NCBI RefSeq assembly: GCF_030384885.1
Contig: NZ_CP128613.1
Strand: one strand, 5' to 3'
Source of the DNA: Escherichia coli
Lineage (GTDB): Bacteria; Pseudomonadota; Gammaproteobacteria; Enterobacterales; Enterobacteriaceae
DNA: 64,000 bases
Translations under genes and position numbers: made by a program
The notes under the pieces: generated by a model
Told to the model about the DNA's origin: nothing
What the model saw: the letters and a program-made list of their open reading frames with translations, nothing else
Databases searched by the model: none
Shown: piece after piece, positions 32,629 through 33,585 of the stretch
How positions within the stretch are numbered: position 1 is the stretch's first letter
Layout of the letters: each line of letters opens with the position of its first letter

Positions 32629-33585
32629 TTAGTACTCGATCCATGGATCACGCTTGCTTTCAGGCAAGGGCTGATCTAATGCCTGCATTTGCTCTGCCGA
32701 AAGTCCGGTATATCGTTGTATCCATTCAGGATCGGCCCCATTCTGCAACAACAATCGGAGGAGGCTCCGTTCCCCTTCTACTTTCCCTTCTTTCCTCCCC
32801 CTCTCCCTTCCCAACAGCCATCCATCATTATGAATTCGCTCTGCAATTGTCATTATTCGCTCCCTGTGGTGTGGCATTCGCCTGGTAAGTTCGCTGATAA
32901 ACGCCTTAAAACGCGCTTCATCGCCAGTCAGTAAAATGTAATTTAACAGCGCAGTTATCTGGCTGTCATTAGCGCACCCTGTAACCAGTAATACTGCCAG
33001 TTGATCAATAAGCCCCATTAGATCGCGCTGGCGAATATGCTTTTGGATCAACTCCAACAGGGCGACTCTGCGATGCTGCACAATCTCGTCATCCGGCACG
33101 ATAGTGATATCCACCAGCGGGAACGCGGCGTTATAAAGCTTCCGTGCGGTAGTCGGGTCGGCAAATTCGTCCAGCCAGCACAAAGACCAGGGATAAGGAC
33201 TACGGCTACCGTGATAAAACAGCATCGGGATGACCAGCGGTAGCGGTCGGCGTTTATCATGTTCGATATGGCGCTGCATCACCGCCATGGAATAGCGCAT
33301 CAGGCGAAAAGCCATGTGAATATCCTCGCGGCTCTGATGTTCAATCACCACATAGATATAGCCATCGCCTTCGCGGGTCTTTACCGACCATAAAATATCG
33401 GAGTGTAGCGCCCGCAATTTTTCATCGACAAAGCTGGCGGATTCCAGTTTTAAGGTGTCGAGATCGCACAGTTCACGTAAATCTTTAGGTAAGTGAATCT
33501 CCATAAAATCCCGCGCAGTGTCAGGGTGCGTGAGAAAGGTTTTAAATAATGCATCATGCGGCGTACTGGTCGTGAAGTTTGTCAT
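32629..33585 (-). CDS. rpnD: Rpn-family (YhgA-like, transposase_31) recombination-promoting nuclease; one intact frame here
   Basis: 318-aa uninterrupted ORF ([36 protein letters not shown]...); in K-12 I recall this locus as split into yjiP/yjiQ. Confidence 0.8.

Follow-up and report, generated by a model that had tools for sequence, protein, structure and literature searches.

Does the rpnD gene at the border of the Escherichia coli restriction island encode an active nuclease, and what else might be written in the same frame? We addressed this question in a 64,000-nucleotide stretch of E. coli DNA from contig NZ_CP128613.1 (hereafter the window), where rpnD occupies positions 32629..33585 on the minus strand as 318 codons, from an ATG start to a TAA stop. 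A first-pass annotation had described a single intact frame of 318 amino acids (aa), and both the open reading frame (ORF) list and a direct reading of the sequence agree, with 0 internal stops. This is the intact chromosomal gene at its usual site, and we think it likely that it works as a toxin-antitoxin system by producing two proteins from one frame, a full-length RpnD_L and a short RpnD_S, and that it serves antiphage defence. The direct support for this reading consists of the intact frame, the orthology, the retained catalytic and start residues, purifying selection, the homology of the protein's tail to RpnA_S and a polymorphism in repeat number.

The encoded protein belongs to the Rpn family. 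It matches Pfam PF04754 (Transposase_31, YhgA-like) with 291.1 bits against a cut-off of 21 (E = 5.1e-87), over residues 8-210 (32956..33564, minus strand), a segment that holds the predicted PD-(D/E)XK nuclease core and covers profile positions 1-202 of 203. It also matches NCBIfam TIGR01784 (Rpn family recombination-promoting nuclease/putative transposase) with 170.6 bits, the cut-off being 52.1. E. coli 2013C-4282 has the identical 957 bp (100%), annotated there as an intact coding sequence (WP_106907625.1). The two profile scores and this identical annotated coding sequence exclude a chance ORF.

The gene is flanked by yjiR (30975..32387, plus strand) on the restriction-island side and by mdtM (34063..35295, plus strand), whose 1233-bp frame aligns to K-12 mdtM, on the opposite side. 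The order mdtM-rpnD-yjiR, on the margin of the Immigration Control Region, is the same in the window, K-12 JM109 and 2013C-4282, and the window aligns colinearly with K-12 over 6.9 kb (97% identity). A megablast search with rpnD returned a median of 1 place per genome in 4241 genomes, annotated as Rpn family, and every match for which the flanks were fetched lay at the same yjiR / mdtM-yjiN locus. The RpnA equivalog model scored 386.6, below its cut-off of 583. On the grounds of synteny, a single place per genome and this sub-threshold score, we assign the gene as the rpnD orthologue. The earlier description of rpnD as lying next to the restriction island is accurate, since the gap to mcrC is ~3.7 kb; mcrC (27915..28961) lies on the low-coordinate side of yjiR together with a remnant ORF, mcrB, hsdS, hsdM, hsdR and mrr.

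The first-pass annotation had also held that the K-12 gene is split into yjiP and yjiQ, and comparison with K-12 confirmed this. The orthologue in K-12 JM109 is 921 bp long and carries a pseudogene flag ('internal stop'). Pairwise alignment, translation and allele-specific 30-mers all placed the difference at codon 104 (33274..33276, minus strand), which is CAG (Gln) in the window and TAG (amber) in K-12; records of K-12 substr. MG1655 match the TAG 30-mer exactly. K-12 rpnD is thus not intact, and its split into yjiP and yjiQ follows from the amber codon. Alignment and translation exclude a frameshift as the cause, the lesion being a single C-to-T nonsense change. A published gene table lists yjiP and yjiQ as synonyms of rpnD, with two UniProt entries (PMC9504249).

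To count the two alleles among 5426 complete E. coli genomes, we used allele-specific megablast with 30-nt queries placed so that any 28-nt seed must include the variable base and each query reports one allele. The CAG allele was found in 3445 genomes and the amber allele in 339; among the matches listed, the latter were nearly all K-12 derivatives (MG1655, MC4100, C600, MC1061, WG1, NEB ER and engineered strains). Ten CAG genomes, drawn at regular intervals from the ranked matches, each carried an annotated intact rpnD; five of these genes measured 945 bp, three 921 bp and two 957 bp. When these and three other intact alleles were translated, each of the 13 gave a single open frame, and D11, D63, E82, Q84, R94, D165 and M245 were kept in all of them. 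The exact protein of the window, WP_106907625.1, is already public in 288 contigs, and the cluster to which it belongs at 90% identity (P0001) has 3918 members. An intact rpnD is therefore the norm of the species and not a peculiarity of the source strain. Nor is the contrast with K-12 new: it was published in 2015 that YjiP is complete in most E. coli and interrupted by a premature stop in K-12, and that a repaired copy was synthesised for experiments (Kingston et al. 2015, PMC4498929). The particular allele is uncommon, as the whole gene is at least 99% identical in only 3 complete genomes.

The first-pass annotation proposed that the strain may keep an active recombination-promoting nuclease. 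Both the intact frame and the catalytic residues, none of which is mutated, support this proposal at the level of sequence. D11, D63, E82, Q84, R94 and D165 (PDDE) occupy the same positions in the window protein as in RpnA, and all six are near-invariant in an 80-sequence family alignment reaching down to ~30% identity. The codon for D63 (GAT, 33397..33399, minus strand) is the equivalent of catalytic RpnA D63, and E82-H83-Q84 (GAA CAT CAG, 33334..33342, minus strand) form the (D/E)XK motif in its E-x-Q version, H83 being near-invariant in that alignment as well. In RpnA, the substitutions D11A, D63A, E82A and Q84K abolish all phenotypes (Kingston et al. 2017, PMC5350276). The same study reported that RpnA-D63A fails to cut pUC19 in vitro, that Q84A and R94A remain toxic without the recombination effect, and that D165A is hyperactive. 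An AlphaFold2 (AF2) model of the window protein, built on a deep alignment from a representative search (predicted local distance difference test score, pLDDT, of 90.2), places strands at 40-47, 61-70, 73-83 and 117-125 and a helix at 91-109; a model from a shallow alignment of relatives with at least 60% identity reached a pLDDT of 60.5 and was discarded.

The nuclease part is also under constraint. For the first 244 codons, comparison with five other rpnD alleles gave a ratio of non-synonymous to synonymous divergence (dN/dS) of 0.07-0.13 at a dS of 0.14-0.21, which indicates purifying selection on the long protein. Alleles of the nuclease half differ from one another by 3-6% at the DNA level. 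The dS in this part is 2-4 times that of the flanking genes yjiR (0.047) and mdtM (0.085), the flanks being measured against K-12. The gene as a whole looks mosaic: 741 genomes match the RpnS part at 99% identity or more, against 3 for the whole gene.

Genes of the rpn family have been reported to encode, from an internal start in the same frame, a C-terminal RpnS protein that blocks the toxic full-length RpnL (Zhong et al. 2023, PMC10400941), and the window gene most likely encodes such an antitoxin as well. The predicted RpnD_S runs from M245 to Y318 (32629..32853, minus strand; 74 aa) in the frame of RpnD_L and begins with MTIAER, as does the crystallised RpnA_S (7TH0_A). A putative internal Shine-Dalgarno sequence, AGGGAG (32860..32865, minus strand), lies upstream of the internal ATG with a spacing of 6 nt from its GGAG core, and M245 is invariant in a 50-sequence alignment. 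A family profile matched PDB 7TH0 ('RpnA', 49 aa) with an E value of 1.4e-6, aligning chain residue 1 to M245, and pairwise BLASTP of the RpnD tail against 7TH0_A gave an E value of 5e-8; single-sequence phmmer against the PDB returned no match, so that in that database RpnA_S was reached by the family profile only. In the AF2 model the tail forms one long helix (238-281) and then two short helices (286-293 and 297-302). No domain was detected when the last 74 and the last 108 residues were scanned against Pfam. PF27070 is listed as a second Pfam family in the precomputed annotations of most RpnD relatives and may represent a more recent model for the RpnS domain.

The long helix carries the feature that would set the pairing between the two products. 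In RpnL and RpnS the number of 4-aa repeats on a common helix varies among strains and only a matching number neutralises (PMC10400941). The window allele has four such units at residues 256-271 (32773..32820, minus strand), which include a 36-bp insertion relative to K-12. They start at residue 12 of the predicted RpnD_S, the published range being 8-20 residues after the RpnS methionine (PMC10400941). Tandem Repeats Finder called nothing in rpnD because the 12-bp units are too imperfect, and the repeats were therefore defined from codon and allele alignments. These alignments revealed a series of lengths: one unit (YIKG) in the 306-aa form of K-12 and NU14; two (WLLG-REEG) in the 310-aa form of E. 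albertii (cluster P0024) and in O157:H7, where the gene is a frameshifted pseudogene; three in the 314-aa form, the commonest length in the sample; four in the 318-aa form of the window; and more than four in forms of 321-322 aa. The four-unit form is not rare, as ~1400 genomes carry it: 741 genomes have the 225-bp RpnS segment at 99% identity or above, and another 681 have it at equal length with 95-99% identity. It is only the pairing of this common segment with the nuclease-half allele of the window that is uncommon. Judged by its sequence, the window allele has every hallmark of the RpnL/RpnS gene-within-gene design, and any RpnD_L activity would consequently be expected to be held in check by RpnD_S, a point that the first-pass annotation did not consider.

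K-12 is not the only lineage in which the long frame is broken. In O157:H7 (ATCC 43890, locus record 1330-1400) a 25-bp tandem duplication right after the internal start causes a frameshift; a 30-mer spanning the duplication junction was found in 279 complete genomes, and the 20 matches listed were O157:H7 or cattle- and beef-associated strains, their genomes being of similar size. The second ATG created by this duplication restores an in-frame RpnS ORF, with ATTCATA upstream instead of the GGAG Shine-Dalgarno core, and the amber codon of K-12 likewise leaves RpnS intact. Both alleles look like 'antitoxin-only' remnants. Further lesions were a 7-bp deletion in one enterotoxigenic E. coli isolate and an IS1 truncation in one pig isolate. 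Among 4229 genomes that have 80% or more of the gene, the amber codon (339) and the duplication (279) limit the intact frame to no more than ~85% of carriers. K-12 and O157:H7 are thus atypical references for rpnD, and annotation transferred from either would therefore wrongly imply a pseudogene.

Taken together with the published work, these features suggest the following mechanism. The full-length 318-aa RpnD_L would act as a PD-(D/E)XK DNA endonuclease of little sequence specificity through D63 and E82-x-Q84, and its over-production would cause DNA damage, SOS induction and an increase in RecA-independent recombination. RpnD_S, translated from the internal ATG at M245 through its own Shine-Dalgarno sequence, would constitute the C-terminal helical domain and would bind and block RpnD_L through the C-terminal domain that the two proteins share. 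The number of 4-aa units in the long first helix of this domain, four in the window, would set the specificity of pairing. The likely role would be antiphage defence or abortive infection within a neighbourhood of defence genes. Separate translation of RpnS and specific neutralisation of RpnL by its own RpnS were shown for RpnA, B and C, and RpnD_S was detected in MG1655 (both PMC10400941).

Several observations weigh against this reading. The proposed nuclease activity, RpnS translation, neutralisation and defence are carried over by analogy from RpnA, B, C, P2 and the repaired K-12 RpnD, and antiphage protection has been demonstrated only for the plasmid-borne RpnP2 and for no chromosomal RpnD (PMC10400941). 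In MG1655, whose rpnD has the amber codon, the RpnL proteins detected did not include RpnD_L (PMC10400941). The window protein had no match in PADLOC v2.0.0, a release without a model for Rpn, and a Foldseek search for solved homologues of the whole protein gave nothing significant. A consensus scan showed no convincing sigma-70 promoter upstream of the full-length start. The same scan did find a promoter-like site within the gene (ATGACA-18 nt-TAAATT, TG-extended; 32940..32969, minus strand), 87 nt upstream of the internal ATG, which is a possible promoter of a short rpnD_S transcript; it is weak evidence, because the scan found 3 such sites and 2.5 were expected in shuffled sequence. Internal transcription start sites have been reported for all K-12 rpn genes (PMC10400941). 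RNA folding around the internal start revealed no unusual structure (z = 0.49).

Of the other explanations, the one that survives best is close to the view of the first-pass annotation. It holds that RpnD mainly promotes recombination and so aids horizontal transfer, its breaks helping to replace the restriction island, and that it has no role in phage defence. The repaired K-12 RpnD indeed raised RecA-independent replacements spanning the Immigration Control Region (PMC4498929, PMC5350276); in the experiment closest to the present case, this copy increased RecA-independent recombination 4.7-fold, induced SOS and killed 94% of recA-deficient recipients (PMC5350276). The gene lies at the border of the restriction island, the neighbouring region differs structurally from that of a near-identical strain by an 8.5-kb Druantia deletion described below, and rpnD alleles look mosaic, with different closest relatives for the whole gene and for its tail. 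The recombination effects, however, were seen only on over-expression and alongside strong toxicity (PMC5350276), and a conserved internal antitoxin and a hypervariable repeat number are hard to explain in this way, whereas a toxin-antitoxin or defence arms race explains both. We regard a mainly recombinational role as unlikely, while recognising that recombination and defence are not mutually exclusive.

It is also conceivable, though quite improbable in our judgement, that the frame is intact and RpnD_L effectively silent, so that only the small RpnD_S, or nothing, is expressed and selected and no active nuclease is gained. In K-12, RpnS proteins are more abundant than RpnL proteins, some of which are undetectable (PMC10400941), and the full-length start in the window has a weak Shine-Dalgarno sequence in addition to lacking a promoter-like site upstream. 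K-12 (amber, 339 genomes) and O157:H7 (25-bp duplication, 279 genomes) lost RpnD_L independently while keeping the RpnS frame, which on this account would make the nuclease dispensable. Against a silent RpnD_L stand the low dN/dS of the nuclease part and the six key residues kept in all 13 intact alleles, which together argue that most lineages still select for the long protein.

Beyond acting as a passive defence toxin, an intact RpnD_L might drive structural turnover of the adjacent defence island. We consider this a long shot suggested by co-location; the loss of Druantia III over 8.5 kb, the deep mosaic divergence of rpnD and the expansion of its 12-bp repeats could be traces of such turnover, and if it were real, lineages that lack RpnD_L, such as K-12 and O157:H7, would have a more static island. 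Finally, database labels ('putative transposase', 'ISNCY family transposase') point to rpnD as a mobile-element transposase, a reading with practically no chance of being correct: the Pfam family is indeed named Transposase_31 and the top-scoring NCBIfam match is PRK09956 ('ISNCY family transposase'), but that model (NF007418) fails with 400.7 bits against a cut-off of 583, no terminal inverted or flanking direct repeats bound the gene (only short chance repeats occur within or across it), rpnD is single-copy in 4241 genomes (median of 1 place per genome) and at one position in every match with flanks fetched, and rpn genes are described as having no inverted repeats, target-site duplications or defined ends (PMC10400941), so that the sub-cut-off score, the absent bounding repeats and the single fixed locus effectively refute it.

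The RpnD module has so far been examined only with the repaired, over-expressed K-12 copy, and natural strains with the window allele would be suited to tests of chromosomal RpnD_L/RpnD_S as an antiphage or recombination module.

The remainder of the window is 99.96-99.99% identical to 2013C-4282 except for two deletions. The first concerns the interval between yjiS and mcrC. A 277-aa ORF (29350..30183, minus strand) corresponds to the N-terminal ~257 residues of DruH (PADLOC DruH3, E = 7e-139). The yjiT gene of 2013C-4282, a strain otherwise 99.97% identical, encodes a complete DruH3 (1096 aa, E = 0), and the gene after it encodes a complete DruE3 helicase (2114 aa, E = 0). An 8.5-kb segment of that strain (locus record 24213-32740, within the compared 23451-33098) is missing in the window, with the junction near 29374/29375. 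By this comparison, a Druantia type III system between yjiS and mcrC is deleted in the window. The second deletion lies in the inverse autotransporter gene iatD (43906..47538, plus strand), which is ~1.55 kb shorter than in 2013C-4282: positions 7995-9548 of the compared record (4474-9714) are absent, the two sides of the junction overlap by 18 bp, and the shortening is probably due to recombination between internal repeats. The yjiR-rpnD intergenic region (32464..32610) contains sequences (GCCGGATGCGGCGTGAACGCCTTATCC... and ...GATAAGCATAGCGCATCAGGC) that resemble palindromic units of repetitive extragenic palindromes (REP) or bacterial interspersed mosaic elements (BIME) and are putative members of these classes by the REP consensus. 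A 14-nt piece of the same region, ATAGCGCATCAGGC, recurs inside rpnD at 33292-33305.

Among known systems, a close comparison is K-12 rpnD itself (yjiP/yjiQ, ECK4329, b4338/b4339), which sits at the same mdtM-rpnD-yjiR locus and has the same catalytic residues and the same internal start. Its nuclease-coding part is 95.6% identical to that of the window at the DNA level. Besides the amber codon, the two differ in the tail, where K-12 has one repeat unit (YIKG) and the window four, owing to a 36-bp (12-codon) insertion just after ...HNDG. The last ~45 codons have diverged strongly (84% DNA identity, dN/dS 0.52), and the K-12 protein ends in ...RERYSWLKS and the window protein in ...SKRDPWIEY. 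The common 318-aa RpnD class (e.g., WP_001593925.1 of strain KOr024; cluster P0001) shares the length and the four repeat units of the window, and its RpnS part is 99% identical in DNA with one residue changed (D313 versus E313). Its nuclease-coding part differs by ~5% in DNA, mostly at synonymous sites.

Outside rpnD, the paralogue RpnA (YhgA), with its short product RpnA_S (PDB 7TH0), has the same PF04754 domain and key-residue numbering as the window protein, an equivalent internal start with the same MTIAER, and a tail that forms a homologous helical domain. It is not rpnD, however: the tails share only 33% identity, and RpnA_S, at 49 aa, is without the 12 extra repeat residues of the predicted RpnD_S. 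RpnA is also the only member for which the biochemistry has been reported, as a Mg2+-dependent, Ca2+-stimulated, non-specific DNA endonuclease (PMC5350276). The only Rpn system with demonstrated antiphage activity, RpnP2_LS, is encoded on a plasmid, whereas the window RpnD is chromosomal; by its published description (PMC10400941), RpnP2_LS belongs to the same family and shares the gene-within-gene design.
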